From an uncultured Rikenella sp. (GTDB lineage Bacteria > Bacteroidota > Bacteroidia > Bacteroidales > VadinHA17): DNA of 64,000 nucleotides. Where the stretch lies: assembly GCA_964535795.1 (NCBI GenBank), contig CAZHTG010000005.1:13328-77327 (forward strand), written 5' to 3'. The notes under the pieces were generated by a model. It saw nothing but the letters and a program-made list of their open reading frames with translations, had not been told where the DNA came from and did not search any database. Position numbers and translations under genes: made by a program. Shown in pieces: positions 20,611 through 64,000 of the stretch (its first letter is position 1; each line of letters opens with the position of its first letter).

Positions 20611-20670
20611 AGGCAGTAGGCAATAGGCAGTAGTGGATTGATCCAAGGCAAGAGGCAGTAGGCAGTAGTG
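20611..20670. repeat. phase-locked heptamer array (AGGCAGT/AGGCAAT units)
   Basis: Read in steps of 7 from 20611: aggcagt aggcaat aggcagt agtggat tgatcca aggcaag aggcagt aggcagt agtg. It lies in the intergenic spacer between the convergent purE and HhH-barrel genes. Confidence 0.9.
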
Positions 20671-20677
20671 CTAAAAT

Positions 20678-20749
20678 TGCGCGTAGCGCATACAGTATTT
20701 TAGAATACAGCGAGTTACGAGATTTGCCCGTAGGGCATACAGTATTGTA
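20678..20749 (+). repeat. two copies of a short-hairpin plus conserved-tail motif
   Basis: 20678-20702 reads tgcgc-gta-gcgca tacagtatttta. 20725-20749 reads tgccc-gta-gggca tacagtattgta. The stem differs by a compensatory G:C to C:G swap. Confidence 0.85.
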
Positions 20750-20775
20750 TAAGGTAATAGGCGACTGTCAGATAT

Positions 20776-23555: not shown

Positions 23556-23563
23556 CAAATTTA
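23556..23563 (-). promoter_or_regulatory. candidate -7 box (TAnnTTTG) for the two outer-membrane genes
   Basis: The minus strand reads TAAATTTG, about 22 nt upstream of the 23534 ATG and downstream of the repeat hairpin. Confidence 0.4.
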
Positions 23564-23602
23564 TGACAGGAAGTGGAGAAAGTCAAGTTTTTTAAAGAAA
23601 AA

Positions 23603-23695
23603 GGCAATAGGCAGCAGGCAGTAGGCAGTAGTGATTCCAGGAATACAATGATTACCAGACTATTGCCTATTGCCTATTGCCTACTGCCTTACTAC
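23603..23695. repeat. inverted heptamer arrays forming a long hairpin (terminator-like) at the recJ stop
   Basis: The left arm is ggcaata ggcagca ggcagta ggcagta (23603-23630). The right arm is ctattgc ctattgc ctattgc ctactgc (23660-23687). The arms are complementary apart from one A/G position per unit. On the recJ (minus) strand the stem is followed by CCTTTTTCTTT. The right arm abuts the recJ stop codon (23692-23694). Confidence 0.85.
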
Positions 23696-28841: not shown

Positions 28842-28944
28842 GGCTGAAGTCAGTCGGCAGTCGGCAATCACAACCAGTCGGCAGTCAACAGTCGGCAGTC
28901 GACAGTCATTAAATAACTGAAGACTGAAGACTATTGCCTAATCC
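28842..28944. repeat. heptamer arrays (CAGTCGG, CTGAAGA, CTATTGC units)
   Basis: It begins directly after the stop codon. From 28875, ten in-phase units read cagtcgg cagtcaa cagtcgg cagtcga cagtcat taaataa ctgaaga ctgaaga ctattgc ctaatcc. An earlier sub-array, cagtcgg cagtcgg caatcac, starts at 28851. Confidence 0.9.
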
Positions 28945-28955
28945 TTCCTAGTTAA

Positions 28956-28963
28956 TACCTTTG
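28956..28963 (+). promoter_or_regulatory. candidate -7 box (TAnnTTTG) for lysS
   Basis: TACCTTTG, 15 nt upstream of the ATG at 28979 and immediately after the repeat element. Confidence 0.4.
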
Positions 28964-30577: not shown

Positions 30578-31918
30578 GTGGCAATGAAGAATAATGGACT
30601 AAATCGACGCAGATTTATCAGAAACGCTTCTGCAGGCCTTATAGGAGCAGGCATTCTCGGGGCAAAGGCCCCCTCATCAGGTACACAGGAAACTGAAGAG
30701 GAATTTCCTAAGATTACTTCATTCCGTACTCTTGGTCGAACCAACTTTAAGGTTTCAGATATCGGAACAGGATATCCCTACAATGAGTCAACTCTCAGGG
30801 CTACATTGGGCTGTGGCGTGAACCTGATTGAAACGTCCGAAATGTATGGCAGAGGAAATAATGAAACCCTCATAGGAAACGTCATCAGGGACCTTGAAAG
30901 AGAAAAGTTATTCATTGTCACCAAACTGGCATATTCCGTAAAGGAATATGAATCTGCAAAGGATATCATTGACAGGGCAAATGCCAGTCTGAAAAGACTT
31001 CAGACTGACTATGTTGATTGCTTCATGCTCCACGGTGCAGAAAACTCTGAAAGAGTAAGGAACAAACATTACCATAAGGCAGTTGATCAATTAAAAAAGG
31101 AGGGGAAAATAAGATTTACCGGCATTTCATGCCACGGACACAGCTGGTGGGATAATCCTGAGGAAACATTTGAACAGGTGCTTATGACTGCTGTTGAAGA
31201 CGGACGGTTTGACGTCATAATGTTGCCCTACAACTTTTTTGAACCTGAAATGGGAGACAGGGTGTTGAAGGCCTGTCATGATAATAACATAGGTACGATG
31301 ATAATGAAATCCGTTCCTATTCTTATATATGAACTCTTCAACGAAGAGAAGCAGAAAAAAGAAAAAGAGGGCGGTGAACTCAGCGAAAGATATAAGATCG
31401 GCTATGAGAAATTTAAGCTGCAGAACGAACAGGCAGAAGCTTTCTTTGCCAGGTATGGGATATCAGGAACTGAAAAGATGAAGGATGGAGCTATTCAGTT
31501 TATCCTGTCAAACAATAATGCAAATACAATCTGTGCATTGTTCCAGAACTTTGATGACATTAAGAAATATATCAGGCTCTCCGGCACTAAACTTGAACCT
31601 CAGACCAGTAAAATGCTTGGTTTCTTCAAGTCAAACTACAACAGGCTGCACTGCAGGATAGGATGCAATATATGCGAAGGCTCATGCCCTCACCATCTGC
31701 CGGTAAACACCATATTGCGATACAATTATTATTTCCAGGCAAAAAAACAGGAAAAGATGGCCATTCAGTTTTATAATGGGTTGCAGGGGAACAAAGCGGA
31801 TATTTGCCTTAATTGCGAAGGTTTCTGTGAGCAAGCCTGTCCTCACGGGGTACTGGCCAGGCCACTGTTGGCTGCAGCCCACAGAAATCTGAGCTTTGAC
31901 ACACCAAATTTTGCCTGA
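30578..31918 (+). CDS. Tat-signal aldo/keto reductase with a C-terminal 2x[4Fe-4S]-like Cys domain
   Basis: Twin-arginine leader NRRRFIRNASAGLIGAGILGA, then an AKR core (IETSEMYGRGNNE, MLHG). The C-terminus has CRIGCNICEGSCP and CLNCEGFCEQACP ferredoxin-type motifs. Confidence 0.7.
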   Translation: MAMKNNGLNRRRFIRNASAGLIGAGILGAKAPSSGTQETEEEFPKITSFRTLGRTNFKVSDIGTGYPYNESTLRATLGCGVNLIETSEMYGRGNNETLIGNVIRDLEREKLFIVTKLAYSVKEYESAKDIIDRANASLKRLQTDYVDCFMLHGAENSERVRNKHYHKAVDQLKKEGKIRFTGISCHGHSWWDNPEETFEQVLMTAVEDGRFDVIMLPYNFFEPEMGDRVLKACHDNNIGTMIMKSVPILIYELFNEEKQKKEKEGGELSERYKIGYEKFKLQNEQAEAFFARYGISGTEKMKDGAIQFILSNNNANTICALFQNFDDIKKYIRLSGTKLEPQTSKMLGFFKSNYNRLHCRIGCNICEGSCPHHLPVNTILRYNYYFQAKKQEKMAIQFYNGLQGNKADICLNCEGFCEQACPHGVLARPLLAAAHRNLSFDTPNFA

Positions 31919-32560: not shown

Positions 32561-32665
32561 AGGTAATAGGCAATAGTAGTTAGCAGTCATTAAACATCTG
32601 ATTGACTGAAGACTGAAGACTTGAGGACTATTGCCTACTGCCTATTGCCTTACTGAAGACTGCTC
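32561..32665. repeat. intergenic spacer built almost entirely of in-phase heptamers, with inverted arms
   Basis: Fifteen consecutive 7-mers run from 32561: aggtaat aggcaat agtagtt agcagtc attaaac atctgat tgactga agactga agacttg aggacta ttgccta ctgccta ttgcctt actgaag actgctc. aggcaatag (left) and ctattgcct (right) are complementary. Confidence 0.9.
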
Positions 32666-35058: not shown

Positions 35059-35066
35059 CAAAGATA
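35059..35066 (-). promoter_or_regulatory. candidate -7 box (TAnnTTTG) for gpsA
   Basis: The minus strand reads TATCTTTG, 17 nt upstream of the ATG and downstream of the repeat element. Confidence 0.4.
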
Positions 35067-35075
35067 TGCATTGAT

Positions 35076-35152
35076 CAGGCAGCAGGCAATAGGCAACAGC
35101 ACTCGGCCACTACTGCCTAATGCCTATTGCCTATTGCCTGAAGAGACTGAGT
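35076..35152. repeat. inverted heptamer arrays forming a hairpin
   Basis: Eleven in-phase 7-mers: caggcag caggcaa taggcaa cagcact cggccac tactgcc taatgcc tattgcc tattgcc tgaagag actgagt. The outer ~20 nt of each arm are complementary with two mismatches. Confidence 0.9.
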
Positions 35153-52067: not shown

Positions 52068-53183
52068 ATGAGAAACAACGACAGACTTAGTGTCAGACTG
52101 ACGCTGGAGGACGGCACCGTCTACCGCGGGTGGTCATTCGGCGCACCCGTTGCCGCTGCGGGCGAGGTGGTCTTCAACACCGCCATGACCGGCTACCCCG
52201 AGAGCCTGACAGACCCATCATACCGGGGACAGATACTTTGTCTGACCTACCCGCTGGTAGGCAACTACGGCGCCCCGGGAAAGAGTGAACAGGATGACCT
52301 CTTCATCTTCTATGAATCATCAGGAGTACATATATCCGCGCTTATCGTCTCAGATTACTCATTTGAATACAGCCACTGGAACGCCATCGAGAGCCTCGAC
52401 GAGTGGCTGAAGAGAAGCAATGTGCCGGGCATCTATGGCATCGACACCCGGGCACTGACAAAACATATCCGTGAGAAGGGAGCGATGCTTGGCAAAGTGG
52501 AGCCTGAAGGGGTCGCAATTGATTTCTATGACCCGAACAAGGTCAACCTCGTCGCCGAGGTGAGCACCGCCTCTCGACAGGTTTACGGCAGCGGCAGGTA
52601 TCGCATCATGCTGGTAGACTGCGGGGTAAAGTATAATATTATAAGGAATCTGCTGAAACGCGACACTACGATAATCAGAGTGCCATGGGACTATGACTAC
52701 AGCGCGGAAGAGTATGACGGGCTGTTCCTTACAAACGGCCCCGGCGACCCTAAGATGTGCAGGGCTGCTATAGATAATATCAGGAAGTCGCTTGACGATG
52801 ACAGGCCCATCTTCGGCATCTGTCTCGGAAACCAGCTTATGGCACTGGCGGCGGGAGCTGACACCTACAAGCTGCGTTACGGGCATCGGAGTCATAACCA
52901 GCCGGTGCAGATGGTTGGAACGGAGAGGGCTTACATCACCTCACAGAATCATGGTTTCGCGGTGAACAACAATACTTTGCCCGCAGGGTGGGTACCGCTC
53001 TTCGTCAATGTCAATGACAACACCAACGAGGGGATGAAACATATATCAAAGCCCTTCTTCTCGACACAGTTCCACCCCGAGGCCTCCGGCGGACCGACGG
53101 ATACTGATTTTCTGTTTGACCTCTTTATTGATAACATTGAGAAGGCAGCAGACCATAGTGAAAAATTAAGAATTAATAATTAA
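52068..53183 (+). CDS. carA: carbamoyl-phosphate synthase small (glutaminase) subunit
   Basis: A CPSase small-chain N-domain and GATase motifs (GICLGNQL, HGF). The last six codons and the stop codon lie inside an ATTAAGA heptamer array. Confidence 0.95.
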   Translation: MRNNDRLSVRLTLEDGTVYRGWSFGAPVAAAGEVVFNTAMTGYPESLTDPSYRGQILCLTYPLVGNYGAPGKSEQDDLFIFYESSGVHISALIVSDYSFEYSHWNAIESLDEWLKRSNVPGIYGIDTRALTKHIREKGAMLGKVEPEGVAIDFYDPNKVNLVAEVSTASRQVYGSGRYRIMLVDCGVKYNIIRNLLKRDTTIIRVPWDYDYSAEEYDGLFLTNGPGDPKMCRAAIDNIRKSLDDDRPIFGICLGNQLMALAAGADTYKLRYGHRSHNQPVQMVGTERAYITSQNHGFAVNNNTLPAGWVPLFVNVNDNTNEGMKHISKPFFSTQFHPEASGGPTDTDFLFDLFIDNIEKAADHSEKLRINN

Positions 53184-53199
53184 GAATTAAGAGTTGATA
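53165..53199. repeat. heptamer array ATTAAGA/ATTAATA spanning the carA stop codon
   Basis: attaaga attaata attaaga attaaga gttgata, read from 53165. The carA stop TAA is at 53181-53183. Confidence 0.9.
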
Positions 53200-53217
53200 A
53201 TCAGCCTGTTAGGTTAC

Positions 53218-53288
53218 GGACTGCAGGACTGCAGGACCTTCAGACTTTTGACTTTACAGACTTTCGACTTTAAGGACTTTTGACTTTA
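53218..53288. repeat. 8-nt and 16-nt tandem arrays (GGACTGCA; CAGACTTTTGACTTTA) spanning the argH stop codon
   Basis: ggactgca ggactgca ggacc is followed by three 16-mers at 53241-53288: cagacttttgacttta, cagactttcgacttta, aggacttttgacttta. The argH stop is at 53254-53256, so its last ~11 codons (SKVLKVESL) are repeat-encoded. Confidence 0.9.
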
Positions 53289-54600
53289 ACTCCTGCGGCG
53301 AATATCCTTGCGCAAATCGCTTCATGATCTTATCAAGCCTCTTTTGTATGAGTTCCTGCCCGGTATTGCCTATGCTGCCGGTGTGCGAGTATTCAGCAAG
53401 GCCGGGAAACCTGAAAGAACCCGACCCTGCCTTTCCTGCAACAATCCGGTAGGCATCCCTGAAGGGAACACCCGAACGGACCATATCATTGGCCTCCTCA
53501 ACGGAGAATATATCATTATACCGGCCGTCGCTCATTATATCCTTCCTGATCACCAATCCTCCCAGCGCCACCTGCACTGCCTGCATCAGATCACCGATGC
53601 CGTCAAAAGCATCGAAGAGCACCGCCTTAAGTTCCTGGAAATCGCGGTTATATCCGGGAGGAAGGCCTGCTGTCATCATAGCCACCTCGCCCGGCACTAC
53701 CTGCATCCTGTTGCACCTCGCCCTGATCAGTTCGAACAGGTCAGGATTTTTCTTTTGGGGCATTATTGACGACCCTGTTGTAAGGTCATCTGACAGTGTG
53801 ACAAACTCATATCCCGGTGACATGAACAGAATCACATCCGATGCGAACCTGCCAATGGTGTTGGCTGCCGAGGCAATTGCGCCGGTTACCTGGCGCTCTG
53901 TTCGTCCGCGGGTCATCTGGGCATATGGTGATGTTATGACCAGCCTCTCAAACCCCAGCAGCCTGGCTGTCAGCTCACGGTCAATGGGCAGCGAGGTGCC
54001 GTACCCGGCTGCTGTTCCCAGCGGGGAAGCGTCAGCCAGGGCCGCCGCACCGGCCAGCACATGCAGGTCATCAGAGAGGCTCTCAGCACAGGATGCAAAC
54101 CATAGCCCGAAGGATGTCACCATCGCCGCCTGCATGTGCGTGAAGCCCGGCATAAGAACCTCCTTATGCTTCTCACTGAGATCCAGAAATGTATCAGCCA
54201 GGGCTTTCAGCTCACGAGCCAGCAGGTACGACCGGTGTCTGATATAAAGGTGAAGATCGGTAAGTACCTGGTCGTTCCGTGAGCGGCCAGTATGCAGCTT
54301 GCCCGCCGCCGCCCCGGCAAGATCATGAAGGCGGTTCTCAACCCATGAGTGGATATCCTCATAATCCTTCCCGATGGAGAAGGCTGACTGCAGCGACTCC
54401 TCAAACAGCCTGACCAGGCCGGCAAGAAGCTGGCTCTTCTCGCCGTCGTTGATCAAACCGCATTGTTCAAGCATGACTGCATGAGCCATGGAACCAACAA
54501 TGTCATACGGCGCCAGCCGGGCATCATAACCCCTGTCACTGTCACAGGTGAAGCTGATGAGCGCCTCCCGGGCATTCACCCCTTTATCCCACAGGTGCAT
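53254..54600 (-). CDS. argH: argininosuccinate lyase
   Basis: The TGRSRNDQ and [12 protein letters not shown] signature motifs. I place the start at MHLWDKG (54600), the usual ArgH N-terminus. The ORF track extends to 54639. Confidence 0.9.
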
Positions 54601-56382: not shown

Positions 56383-56424
56383 AAAAAAAAAAGAGGGCTC
56401 TCATTTCTGTTACGAGAAGCCCTC
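56383..56424 (-). terminator. Rho-independent terminator of the PEGA-protein genes
   Basis: The minus strand reads GAGGGCTTCTC-gtaacagaaat-GAGAGCCCTC followed by ten T. The stem is ~10 bp with one bulge and lies 23 nt after the stop codon at 56447. Confidence 0.8.
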
Positions 56425-56446
56425 CTGTCTTGCCGGCCGGTCAGCC

Positions 56447-62168: not shown

Positions 62169-62217
62169 GGCAATAGGCAGTTATTGCGCGTAGCGCATAA
62201 AGTATTGTAGGCAATAG
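62169..62217 (+). repeat. composite element: GGCAATA heptamers flanking a hairpin-tail motif
   Basis: The sequence reads ggcaataggcagttat tgcgc-gta-gcgca taaagtattgta ggcaatag. It starts 10 nt after the carB stop. Confidence 0.9.
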
Positions 62218-62249
62218 AATTTTCGGAAATTTTTAATACCCATAGCCAA

Positions 62250-62744
62250 ATGATAACCATACGAAAAGCCCACTCTCACGATGCAACAACAATCATCGCA
62301 TTTCAGCAGGCCATGGCCAGGGAGACAGAAGGCCTTGAGCTGAAGAGTGAATTGATCACCAACGGCGTCTTGGCTGTCTTCCGCGATGAGAACAAAGGCT
62401 TTTACTATGTGGCCGAAGAGAACGGCACGGTGATGGCGTCACTGATGATCACCTTCGAGTGGAGCGACTGGCGCAACGCAAATATCTGGTGGTTCCAGTC
62501 GGTCTATGTTATTCCTGAATACCGCCGCAGGGGGATCTTCAGGATGATGTATGATCACGTCAGGAAGGAGGGCATGGCGCAGGGCATTGCCGGACTGCGT
62601 CTCTACGTGGAGTCGGAGAACACCCGCGCCCAGAAGACTTACGAAGCGATGGGCATGGACGGGTCGCACTACAAAACGTTTGAGTGGATGGCGGATCAGG
62701 CAATAGAGGGGCGAGCGATTAGTAATGACCCGGTAGGTCATTAG
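62250..62744 (+). CDS. GNAT-family N-acetyltransferase
   Basis: An acetyl-CoA-binding motif (VIPEYRRRGIFRMM), 164 aa. Confidence 0.85.
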   Translation: MITIRKAHSHDATTIIAFQQAMARETEGLELKSELITNGVLAVFRDENKGFYYVAEENGTVMASLMITFEWSDWRNANIWWFQSVYVIPEYRRRGIFRMMYDHVRKEGMAQGIAGLRLYVESENTRAQKTYEAMGMDGSHYKTFEWMADQAIEGRAISNDPVGH

Positions 62745-62771
62745 CATGAGCAGCCAGACTGAAGGGTGGGC

Positions 62772-62889
62772 GGCAATAGGCAGTAGCCGCAAATTGCGCG
62801 TACCGCACCTGTTTTTGCAGACGACTGGTAATAAAACTATAAGTGTGCGTAGCAGCCTGCCCCGATATATCGGGGCATAAAGTATTGTA
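62772..62889 (+). repeat. composite element: heptamers, a degenerate hairpin motif and an intact hairpin-tail motif
   Basis: ggcaataggcagtag (62772-62786) comes first. tgcgcgtaccgca (62795-62807) is a degenerate copy with one stem mismatch. tgccccga-tata-tcggggca taaagtattgta (62858-62889) follows. A tail-only copy, ataaagtattga, lies at 62929-62940. Confidence 0.85.
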
Positions 62890-62958
62890 GAAATGTATGT
62901 TATATATAAGTTCTGTTCCTTGGAGAGGATAAAGTATTGATAATTTTAGAAGTCTTAA

Positions 62959-64000
62959 ATGACCTGGTTCCTGGTTCCGGTTGCTGTTTATTCCATTGGG
63001 ATTTTGATCCTTTGGCTGATTTTGCAGGGAAGGCGTACTGAAATCCCCTCTGCCGCCGGTCCATTGCCACGGATCACTGTTGTGGTTGCGGCAAGGAATG
63101 AAGAAAAGAACATTTCAGCCCTGCTTGAGTCACTTTCGCATCAGGACTACCCCCCGGATCTCCTTGATATTATTATAGTCAATGACAACTCAACTGACAG
63201 GACTCCCATTATTGTCAGTGAATTCATCAGGGAGCACGGGGTGGCGGATCATTTCAGGCTTATATACAATCTCTCGCCCGGCAAAAAGAATGCAATCCGC
63301 CACGGGGTGATTAAGGCAGCCGGGGAATTGATCATCACCACTGATGCCGACTGTCTTGTCGGGCCGGGTTGGGTCAGCGCTCACGCGGCGGCGTATGGGC
63401 TGTTAGAAGAAAGCGCTAACGCGGGGGCGTATGGGCCGTCTGGGGGAAGCGCTCACGCGGCGGCGTATTGTCCAAATGGGGGAAGTACTCACCCGGCTGC
63501 AGGAGCGCCGGGGAACGCTGACATGATTGTGGGAGAGGTTTACCAGGGGCCGCCGGGGGGGGTTGTCTCGCTTTTTGGCATGTTTGAGTTCTCAGCGCTG
63601 CAGGCGATTACCGAGGCTGCCGTCGTCGCGGGCCGGCCTGTGATGTGCAACGCCGCGAACATGTCATTCAGGAAGGATATTTATCTCCGGCACTTCGCCG
63701 AACTGCGGGCTGAACTGCCTTCGGGTGACGATATTTTCCTGTTGCATGCCGTCAGGCGTGCGGGTGGCAGGGTCCGGTATGCGGGCAGCAGTGCGGCGGC
63801 GGTGGAGACCGCGGGTGCGGTCACGGCTGCGGCGCTGCTGCGACAGCGTGCCCGCTGGGCATCAAAAACATTCTGGTACAGTGACACCGCCACTCTCACC
63901 CTCGCCGCAGCCACGGCGGCGTGCAACGCCGCCGTCACCGCCGCCGCAGTAGCCTCTATCATATCCCCGGCACACCTGCCGCTTCTGGCGGCCATGTACG
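62959..64000 (+). CDS. family 2 glycosyltransferase, 3'-truncated by the window edge
   Basis: The ATG at 62959 opens a frame with no stop before the window end, so the ORF track does not list it. It has an N-terminal TM helix, then ITVVVAARNEEKNI...IIIVNDNSTDRT...TTDADC, which are GT2 motifs. The C-terminal part is Ala-rich and hydrophobic. Confidence 0.8.
   Translation, partial: MTWFLVPVAVYSIGILILWLILQGRRTEIPSAAGPLPRITVVVAARNEEKNISALLESLSHQDYPPDLLDIIIVNDNSTDRTPIIVSEFIREHGVADHFRLIYNLSPGKKNAIRHGVIKAAGELIITTDADCLVGPGWVSAHAAAYGLLEESANAGAYGPSGGSAHAAAYCPNGGSTHPAAGAPGNADMIVGEVYQGPPGGVVSLFGMFEFSALQAITEAAVVAGRPVMCNAANMSFRKDIYLRHFAELRAELPSGDDIFLLHAVRRAGGRVRYAGSSAAAVETAGAVTAAALLRQRARWASKTFWYSDTATLTLAAATAACNAAVTAAAVASIISPAHLPLLAAMY
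63376..63519 (+). repeat. four in-frame 36-bp tandem repeats inside the GT2 gene
   Basis: The units start at 63376, 63412, 63448 and 63484 and read agcgctcacgcggcggcgtatgggctgttagaagaa, agcgctaacgcgggggcgtatgggccgtctggggga, agcgctcacgcggcggcgtattgtccaaatggggga and agtactcacccggctgcaggagcgccggggaacgct. They encode SAHAAAYGLLEE, SANAGAYGPSGG, SAHAAAYCPNGG and STHPAAGAPGNA. Confidence 0.85.

Follow-up and report, generated by a model that had tools for sequence, protein, structure and literature searches.

Heptamer arrays anchored on stop codons in the intergenic spacers of a Bacteroidales genome, and their association with PF05635 genes

The window analyzed here is a 64-kb stretch of DNA from an uncultured Bacteroidales lineage, and the array counts given for it are counts within that window. 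Its intergenic spacers hold a dispersed family of tandem heptamer arrays, including the flagged element at 32561-32665 between the convergent stop codons of a 206-amino-acid (aa) gene and pgi. Most elements are inverted pairs in which a G-rich arm is followed by a loop and a C-rich arm, and the adjoining genes are housekeeping genes (purE, recJ, a class-IV aminotransferase gene, lysS, pgi, gpsA and carA/carB-like genes). The arrays and their parts are as follows.

20611-20668, plus strand: two in-phase G-type arrays in the purE spacer, starting 5 nucleotides (nt) past the purE stop; units AGGCAGT AGGCAAT AGGCAGT AG and AGGCAAG AGGCAGT AGGCAGT AG, with the 12-nt palindrome TGGATTGATCCA between them
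20752-20768, plus strand: degenerate G-type remnant AGGTAATAGGCGACTGT, adjoining the stop of a 655-aa gene
23602-23691, minus strand: hairpin downstream of recJ, abutting the recJ stop at 23692; G arm 23602-23632, loop 23633-23659, C arm 23660-23691
28851-28944, plus strand: composite array that follows the class-IV aminotransferase stop and precedes the lysS -7 box at 28956-28963; in order, units of GGCAGTC type (CAGTCGG and its variants; phase broken once, at 28872), ACTGAAG twice, then CTATTGC CTAATCC
32561-32665, no strand assigned: flagged element between the convergent stops of the 206-aa gene and pgi; outer stem AGGTAATAGGCAATAG with CTATTGCCTACTGCCTATTGCC, inner stem CAGTC with GACTGAAGACTGAAGACT
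35076-35141, minus strand: hairpin past the stop of a 446-aa gene; G arm 35076-35099, C arm 35110-35141
53161-53289, no strand assigned: composite array of four AATTAAG units, 2.5 copies of the 8-mer GGACTGCA and six GACTTTT-type units
62169-62217, plus strand: short G-type array GGCAATAGGCAGT after the carB-like stop, broken by the 28-nt ATTGCGCGTAGCGCATAAAGTATTGTAG and resuming as GGCAATAG
62772-62786, plus strand: short G-type array GGCAATAGGCAGTAG after the stop of a GNAT gene, a direct repeat of 62169-62181

Periodicity was assessed with a lag-p scan against block shuffles, and Tandem Repeats Finder was run alongside. The scan recovers 10 period-7 arrays in the window, compared with 0.15 in the shuffles. 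Non-harmonic periods other than 7 give between zero and three arrays each, period 14 (the second harmonic of 7) gives five, and a 50-kb control from E. coli K-12 contains no period-7 array. Tandem Repeats Finder places period-7 starts at 20611, 20653, 23602, 23660, 28851, 28916, 32604, 32628, 35076 and 35110, and reports an extra set at 53164-53289. Within an array the heptamers stand head to tail, with copy numbers of 2.3-7.7 across the 10 arrays of the two methods. The units belong to one family consisting of GGCAGTA, GGCAATA, GGCAGTC and their complements: CAGTCGG is a rotation of GGCAGTC and therefore one base off GGCAGTA, while GACTGAA is the complement of GGCAGTC with two mismatches. A preliminary description of this DNA had reported heptamer arrays with GGCAATA/GGCAGTA, their complements, CTGAAGA and CAGTCGG as the unit vocabulary. 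Arrays are indeed present at every site that it claimed (20611-20668, 23602-23691, 28851-28944, 32561-32665, 35076-35141, 62169-62217 and 62772-62786), the vocabulary is as given, with CAGTCGG read as rotated GGCAGTC, and the 7-nt periodicity that it expected over shuffled controls holds within the window (10 arrays against 0.15). Its inventory lacked the 53161-53289 composite, to which the extra Tandem Repeats Finder set belongs. It also recognized a family at gene 3' ends but overlooked the dominant principle of the arrangement, the inverted pairing of G arm and C arm anchored on stop codons.

The placement of the arrays likewise follows strict rules. A hand-curated gene map assigns 4.2% of the window to intergenic DNA, and all array sites (8 in 64 kb) fall inside that fraction, as expected from the earlier statement that every copy is intergenic. 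Among spacers of at least 40 nt, arrays are found in three of four convergent and four of ten co-directional ones, and in none of the six divergent ones, which agrees with the location at the 3' ends of transcription units that had been proposed. Each of the eight informative arrays in the window lies within 50 nt of the stop codon that precedes it, with its G-rich strand as sense strand with respect to the gene ending there. The claimed TAnnTTTG -7 boxes at 23556, 28956 and 35059 are present and are conserved in relatives. Some arrays lie 10-20 nt upstream of such a box, and array copy number varies, both of which would suit contingency repeats that tune adjacent promoters through unit number (phase variation). 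We give this explanation almost no credence, because the arrays lie upstream of the entire promoter and not between its elements, the divergent promoter spacers contain none, and the neighbors are housekeeping genes (purE, recJ, lysS, pgi, gpsA, carAB).

The preliminary description further proposed that the arrays are phase-locked, with the spacer at 32561-32665 read as 15 consecutive in-phase 7-mers. That parse is a legal one, but the 7-nt register does not extend across the whole spacer. Apart from 20611-20668, no element has lag-7k autocorrelation above background once lag 21-28 is reached, and the arrays at 28851 and 28875 do not share a phase. When same-unit arrays with a gap between them are paired over all loci, the phase agrees in 4 of 11 pairs (p = 0.06), mostly those whose gap is at most 28 nt. 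Short in-phase gaps thus look like decayed units of a single array and not like a separate constraint, and phase-locking over whole spacers is rejected by the autocorrelation together with the gap-phase test.

Whichever strand is transcribed, most elements give an RNA that folds as a long, imperfect stem-loop (20-30 bp). Four of seven window elements fold significantly (z = -3.2 to -6.2), each placing a stable stem-loop directly 3' of a gene. The recJ hairpin has a minimum free energy (MFE) of -45.5 kcal/mol (z = -6.2), and on the recJ transcript, which runs on the minus strand, it is followed by UUUUUCUUU at 23593-23601, giving the architecture of an intrinsic terminator; the next gene has its -7 box at 23556-23563. 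The lysS-spacer element at 28851-28944 forms an imperfect stem of 5-bp helices (MFE -33.4 kcal/mol, z = -3.2), and the flagged element folds on both strands (-38.3 kcal/mol on the plus strand and -37.7 kcal/mol on the minus strand, z about -4). The gpsA-spacer hairpin at 35076-35141 (MFE -42 kcal/mol, z = -3.75; gpsA -7 box at 35059-35066) has no U-tract. A simple terminator scan misses these elements because their loops exceed 8 nt.

Comparison with relatives shows which of these properties persist. Four syntenic contigs were compared, with PGI identities to the window of 93, 90, 87 and 83% (93% being the best in the collection); in addition, L108, a metagenome-assembled genome (MAG) labelled Rikenella sp., is syntenic with the window at about 75% nucleotide identity. 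Array density in relatives is 1.4-2.3 per 10 kb. The same spacers hold arrays in the four syntenic relatives, with a different unit type, copy number and arrangement, and the polymorphism in unit number that the preliminary description had asked about is present in the purE, recJ, pgi, gpsA and lysS spacers (4-5 relatives). In the purE spacer of five genomes, the left array starts 4-5 nt past the stop and has 3.3-4.3 units, and the right arm has 4, 7 or 8 units. The gpsA spacer of relatives is 112-281 nt long and contains other arrays, and the orthologous lysS spacers hold other units. The inner loop CAGTCATTAAAnATCTGATTGACTG of the pgi spacer is common to the window and L216, with different flanking arrays; arrays in this spacer differ in L215, L216 and L218, and L217 has none. 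At recJ, all four genomes compared (the window, L216, L217 and L218) have a long stem-loop abutting the recJ stop, then a U-tract, then the promoter box of the next gene, and the L217 stem consists of CAGTCAG/GACTGAA units in place of GGCAGTA/TACTGCC. Complementarity of the arms therefore survives replacement of the unit at the recJ site. The arrays are positionally stable and compositionally fluid: the arms change rapidly through gain, loss and conversion of whole units, and position and pairing persist. As a separate observation from the same comparison, the aldo/keto-reductase gene found between lysS and the 206-aa gene in the window (30578-31918) is absent in L217 and L218, which have a heptamer array there instead.

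The unit family is by no means restricted to this lineage. The query GGCARTAGGCARTAGGCA was scanned against one genome per species, with phyla taken as in the records, and gave at least 120 matches; among the matches listed, 34 are in Bacteroidota, 20 in Acidobacteriota, 18 in Alphaproteobacteria and other Pseudomonadota, 14 in Planctomycetota, 12 in Cyanobacteria and 22 in more than 10 other phyla. The raw number of matches in the collection was rejected as evidence, since an 18-mer with two degenerate positions is expected by chance about 70 times in 596 Gb; array extension, partner arrays and permuted-unit controls were used in its place. The matches sit in longer arrays, often with a partner and other heptamer arrays close by. 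In a complete scan of the viral database IMG/VR, exact (GGCAGTA)x2.6 occurs at 82 loci, whereas three permutations of the unit, identical in composition, occur at 8, 15 and 1. The window unit is present in viral contigs and in no fewer than 15 phyla, which argues for a common mechanism as opposed to lineage-specific noise. The rarer units of the window also occur elsewhere, AATTAAG in Planktothrix, GACTTTT in Chitinophagales and AGTCGGA in Mucilaginibacter. Two IMG/VR contigs of 58-67% GC, L313 and L238, carry a heptamer hairpin that starts on the stop codon in almost every spacer, and L313 also has GGAGGTA arrays, the unit of which is a perfect Shine-Dalgarno-like sequence.

The placement rules were tested on 120 genome loci and 120 viral loci among the matches listed, which were ascertained on one unit family and in which open reading frames (ORFs) were called crudely. 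Where arrays of opposite type lie at most 150 nt apart, the G arm comes first 48 times out of 49 in the genome loci and 101 times out of 102 in the viral loci. The stop of a long ORF lies between -25 and +10 nt of the array 5' end, with G as the sense strand, for 134 of 282 genome arrays and 259 of 431 viral arrays, and in the C sense for 8 of 282 and 35 of 431. Convergent spacers hold 3.97 arrays per kb, co-directional spacers 2.65 and divergent spacers 0.85.

Such rules could in principle arise without any function, if slippage-prone repeats expand wherever selection allows and the positional rules are by-products of purifying selection; units that contain TAG, for example, would be tolerated only in the orientation that stops translation. 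GGCAGTA and GGCAATA do read TAG in each of the three G-strand frames, and their C strand is free of stops. Close relatives differ in units, in copy numbers and in whether an array is there at all, and some arrays do not fold. Polymerase slippage has also been proposed as the origin of heptamer long simple sequence repeats (LSSRs) by Mrazek (2007), as cited by MacGregor (PMC4679880). Several observations nevertheless make this account unlikely in our judgment. The G-first rule also applies to the Xanthomonas unit GGGAATC, which has no stop on either strand (PMC4692102), so that stop-codon content fails as the cause of the polarity. The 48:1 and 101:1 polarity holds in co-directional spacers too, where only one side faces a stop, the recJ arms of L217 are still complementary after replacement of the unit type, and the 82 exact GGCAGTA loci in IMG/VR stand against 8, 15 and 1 for the permuted units.

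The arrays are thus anchored on stop codons, polar and mostly hairpin-forming, and they turn over fast at fixed positions. We suggest that they act in RNA as 3'-end punctuation, with a probability of roughly 0.55. A minority followed by U-tracts, here the recJ hairpin, would be intrinsic terminators, and the remaining hairpins would most likely block 3' exonucleases or serve as processing sites for a double-strand-specific (RNase III-type) enzyme. In this they would be similar to REP elements, the intergenic hairpins of phage T7 and the stems of rRNA intervening sequences (IVSs). PF05635 genes, discussed below, would then be small ORFs living in the hairpin loops of related genomes.

Several observations weigh against this proposal. 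The elements at 20611-20668, which has no C-rich partner and no hairpin (z = 0.0 against shuffles), and at 53161-53289, with no significant hairpin (z about 0), fold no better than shuffled sequence. Only one of the four window hairpins, that of recJ, has a U-tract, and among 148 hairpins elsewhere U-tracts after the C arm are not enriched (4% and 3% against backgrounds of 3.8% and 1.6%). Most of the hairpins are consequently not canonical intrinsic terminators, and canonical termination is rejected as a general answer. An ordinary intrinsic terminator, GAGGGCT...AGCCCTC followed by T10, lies at 56388-56436 on the minus strand, so the genome uses conventional terminators as well. In relatives the pgi-spacer hairpin is weak, and L217 lacks it, so that it is dispensable there. 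Finally, punctuation of RNA 3' ends does not explain why the units are 7 nt long or why the G arm comes first. Certain other identities can be set aside. CRISPR arrays have repeats of 23-50 nt with unique spacers of similar length, and the contiguous 7-nt units here do not correspond to them; Rfam-family and tRNA-like explanations are likewise rejected, given the contiguous 7-mers and zero Rfam matches in the window at gathering score.

A role of the arrays in DNA would require either that they are heptad operator- or centromere-like arrays for a protein of the ribbon-helix-helix type, or that they form G-quadruplex or cruciform DNA. The omega protein of pSM19035 is of the ribbon-helix-helix type and has contiguous heptad arrays to which those of the window may bear a likeness, and the contiguous 7-bp units in direct and inverted orientation would fit such a system. 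GGGAATC repeats are, moreover, able to form G-quadruplexes in vitro (PMC4692102). The window units have GG only, which makes a stable G-quadruplex unlikely; the anchoring on stop codons and the G strand as sense strand point to transcription or translation, and the arrays have no candidate binding protein associated with them. We consider a DNA-level role very improbable.

The spacer downstream of purE connects the arrays to a protein family. In L108, this spacer contains a gene of 120 aa between AGGCAATAGGCAGTAGGCAATAGGCAGTAG and its inverted complement. Its product matches PF05635, "23S rRNA-intervening sequence protein" (E = 2e-39), and TIGR02436, "four helix bundle protein", as well as the solved pentameric protein XCC0516 (PDB 2GSC), with a weaker match to Avd, a protein of diversity-generating retroelements. 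A PF05635 gene lies between G arm and C arm in the purE spacer of L108, L132, L218 and L222, and the window retains the G arm there, with other sequence in place of the ORF and the C arm. Array-flanked PF05635 genes also occur in the gyrB/parC spacer of a Bacteroidales genome, on a Planctomycetes contig with GGGATTA units and on a Nitrospirae contig with 8-mer units. In Xanthomonas (CP173422.1, positions 900-1380 of locus L220), a PF05635 gene is located between accB and accC with GGGAATC-type arrays upstream and their complement downstream, which ties the published GGGAATC repeat family to PF05635 genes.

To quantify the association, 80 metagenomic PF05635 genes were sampled with flanks of 160 nt, a score of at least 14 being taken as inverted complementarity. 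Period-7 arrays are found in 17 of 78 upstream and 20 of 76 downstream flanks, compared with 0.024 per 160 bp elsewhere in the loci, and period-8 arrays in 13 of 78 and 16 of 76, compared with 0.013. At least one flank has a period-7 or period-8 array in 43 of the 80 genes, and both flanks do in 24. The upstream arrays comprise 22 of G-type and none of C-type, and the downstream arrays 27 of C-type and 3 of G-type. A gene's own flanks show inverted complementarity in 41 of 68 cases, against 7.5% of mismatched pairs and none of 90 neighbor genes. In some cases (L209, L133, L170) the units flanking a PF05635 gene are telomere-like, with up to 10 copies of TAGGGTT/AACCCTA or of GGGATTA/GGGACTA. 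Many public contigs bearing PF05635 genes are only 500-1100 nt long or end about 80 nt past the gene, a pattern that fits breakage of assemblies at the arrays beside the gene.

The hairpins may accordingly be read in a second way, which is compatible with 3'-end punctuation and which we offer tentatively: they could be the cis-elements of a system centered on PF05635 proteins, forming the stems of cassettes that resemble IVSs, and those without a gene could be empty or decayed copies or target sites acted on in trans, as REP/REPIN sequences are to RAYT. Heptamer hairpins and PF05635 proteins might then form one widespread system, a conjecture toward which we lean less than half-way, in which the protein binds or processes the arrays or its gene rides in their loops. 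The same hairpin would serve as rRNA IVS stem, as hairpin in the 3' untranslated region and as intergenic punctuation in phages, and a PF05635 ORF riding in a loop would be released from host transcripts by cleavage of the stem. In favor of this are the gene between the arms of the purE spacer in the four genomes named, with the G arm alone left in the window, the arrays beside 43 of 80 genes with their fixed orientation (22 G and 0 C upstream, 27 C and 3 G downstream), the inverted own flanks, and the accB-accC gene between arms built from the unit proper to that Xanthomonas genome. The 23S IVS of Coxiella is a further precedent, with heptameric repeats upstream of its S23p ORF that vary in number by strain and a stem that is cut by RNase III (PMC4990558). 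Against it, the window contains no PF05635 gene or remnant of one, and hence no ORF enclosed by its hairpins. PF05635 genes number two in the 0.85 Mb of the 120 array-bearing genome loci and none in the 1.03 Mb of the 120 viral loci; arrays as flanks of PF05635 genes in general are therefore rejected, the association running in one direction only. Hairpin loops may also simply be safe sites for a small selfish ORF. To our knowledge, no catalytic or sequence-specific binding activity has been attributed to a PF05635 protein, which likewise counts against this reading. A literature search found no report of an association between PF05635 genes and arrays outside rRNA.

Among described repeats, the closest to the window family are the GGGAATC and GGGGA(C/T)T heptamers of Xanthomonas and Nostoc, which are dispersed, intergenic and located close to stop codons on the coding strand (Rehm et al. 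2015, PMC4692102). Their pairs are always convergent, they are under-represented between divergent ORFs and, in close relatives, vary in length and sequence but not in type, Xanthomonas transcripts often start or end in them, and no link to mobile elements was found (PMC4692102). The window family shares with them G on the coding strand, proximity to stops, pairs with the G arm first, depletion from divergent spacers and variation among close relatives. The two differ in lineage and in sequence: the Rehm-type repeats have GGG or GGGG runs, G-quadruplexes and a preference for four units, whereas the window units have GG only, and G-tracts of three or more, able to form G-quadruplexes, are the one hallmark of those repeats that is lacking here. 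An additional point of difference from the repeats as published is that Xanthomonas has a PF05635 gene in its accB-accC spacer, flanked by arms of GGGAATC type.

The analogy drawn in the preliminary description to the short tandemly repeated repetitive (STRR) sequences of heterocystous cyanobacteria is apt, and loci of Nostoc, Planktothrix and other cyanobacteria do contain GGCAATA arrays. Classical STRR units are CCCCAGT, TTGGTCA and CAACAGT, and inverted pairing and anchoring on stops are outside the STRR definition. STRR sequences are tandem heptamers, dispersed between genes, with several units per genome (Mazel et al. 1990). TAACTGA heptamers are known from Beggiatoaceae, cyanobacteria and five Bacteroidetes, namely Paludibacter, which belongs to Bacteroidales, Gramella, Aequorivita, Flexibacter and Elizabethkingia (MacGregor 2015, PMC4679880). 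They resemble the window arrays in being intergenic, in their patchy spread across phyla and in sharing spacers with other heptamers, but most are direct repeats lying just ahead of a start codon (1 in 170 is inverted), and they were proposed to be sites for a translational regulator (PMC4679880). The 23S IVSs of Leptospira, Coxiella and Xanthomonas (PMC4990558) share a long stem around a PF05635 ORF and, in Coxiella, heptamers, but lie inside rRNA, whereas the window hairpins lie in mRNA spacers and enclose no ORF.

Repetitive extragenic palindromic (REP) sequences, bacterial interspersed mosaic elements (BIMEs) and REPIN-RAYT systems are likewise abundant intergenic hairpin repeats at gene 3' ends, with an associated gene flanked by inverted copies. 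REP sequences are unique palindromes of about 20-35 nt and not tandem heptamers, however, and RAYT is a transposase, whereas PF05635 proteins have no known enzymatic activity. No RAYT gene (IS200/IS605-like) was seen among the window ORFs with Pfam hits, no genome-wide search having been made. The exclusion of REP/BIME in the preliminary description is borne out by sequence, and that of CRISPR by the contiguous 7-nt units. Intrinsic terminators resemble the elements in having a stem-loop directly downstream of a gene, and in the conserved U-tract of the recJ copy, but the array stems are two to three times longer, are built of repeats and mostly have no U-tract.

Regarding novelty, the literature search turned up no account of the GGCAGTA/GGCAATA family in Bacteroidales, the unit strings returning only short hairpin RNA and primer matches, and to this extent the earlier claim that such a family had not been described stands. 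It does not extend to heptamer arrays as such, which are known in five Bacteroidetes, or to the positional rules, which the Xanthomonas/Nostoc family shares (PMC4692102). The wider class has already been described (STRR, the LSSRs of Mrazek, TAACTGA, GGGAATC), and the window family is a further member and not a new kind. What appears to be new is a Bacteroidales family with this unit, the occurrence of an identical unit under identical rules across phyla and viral contigs, and the association with PF05635. Heptamer repeats have been noted for decades in cyanobacteria, xanthomonads and sulfur bacteria without an agreed function, and the Bacteroidales version obeys the same strict rules: anchored on stops, G-rich arm first, absent from divergent spacers. 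The link to PF05635 offers an experimental handle both on the repeats and on a large family with no assigned function, including rRNA IVS genes and Avd homologues. If true, a single system of hairpins and PF05635 proteins would supply the first function for a very large family of orphan proteins and for repeats that have been known since 1990. In practical terms, such repeats break short-read assemblies and can create or extend spurious ORFs.

The composite array at 53161-53289 lies between two convergent genes (carA-like and lyase) and overlaps the final codons of both, so that the C-termini of these ORFs may be encoded by the array. Its units recur in Planktothrix (L085), Chitinophagales (L011) and L217, and a 63-nt stretch of it matches L044, another Bacteroidales MAG, at 87%.

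A second small repeat, ATTGCGCGTAGCGCATAAAGTATTGTAG, consists of the hairpin GCGC-GTA-GCGC and CATAAAGTATTGTAG and is located within or beside GGCAATA arrays. Copies are found at 20677-20705, 20724-20752 and 62183-62210, and at 62793-62807 plus 62875-62890, where the copy is split by a 67-nt insert; the four occurrences compare with 0.25 expected. A further copy in L120 (1892-1920) ends 6 nt ahead of the start codon of a response-regulator gene. The repeat could be a tiny inserted element or a promoter or leader module. The GNAT acetyltransferase gene (62250-62744) is bracketed by direct copies of the composite of GGCAATAGGCAGT and the 28-nt motif (62169-62890), and looks like a second kind of small cargo gene flanked by array sequence. 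Lastly, a 36-nt tandem repeat of 3.4 copies with 79% matches is found at 63376-63497, within a GT2-like glycosyltransferase gene that is truncated by the window end.

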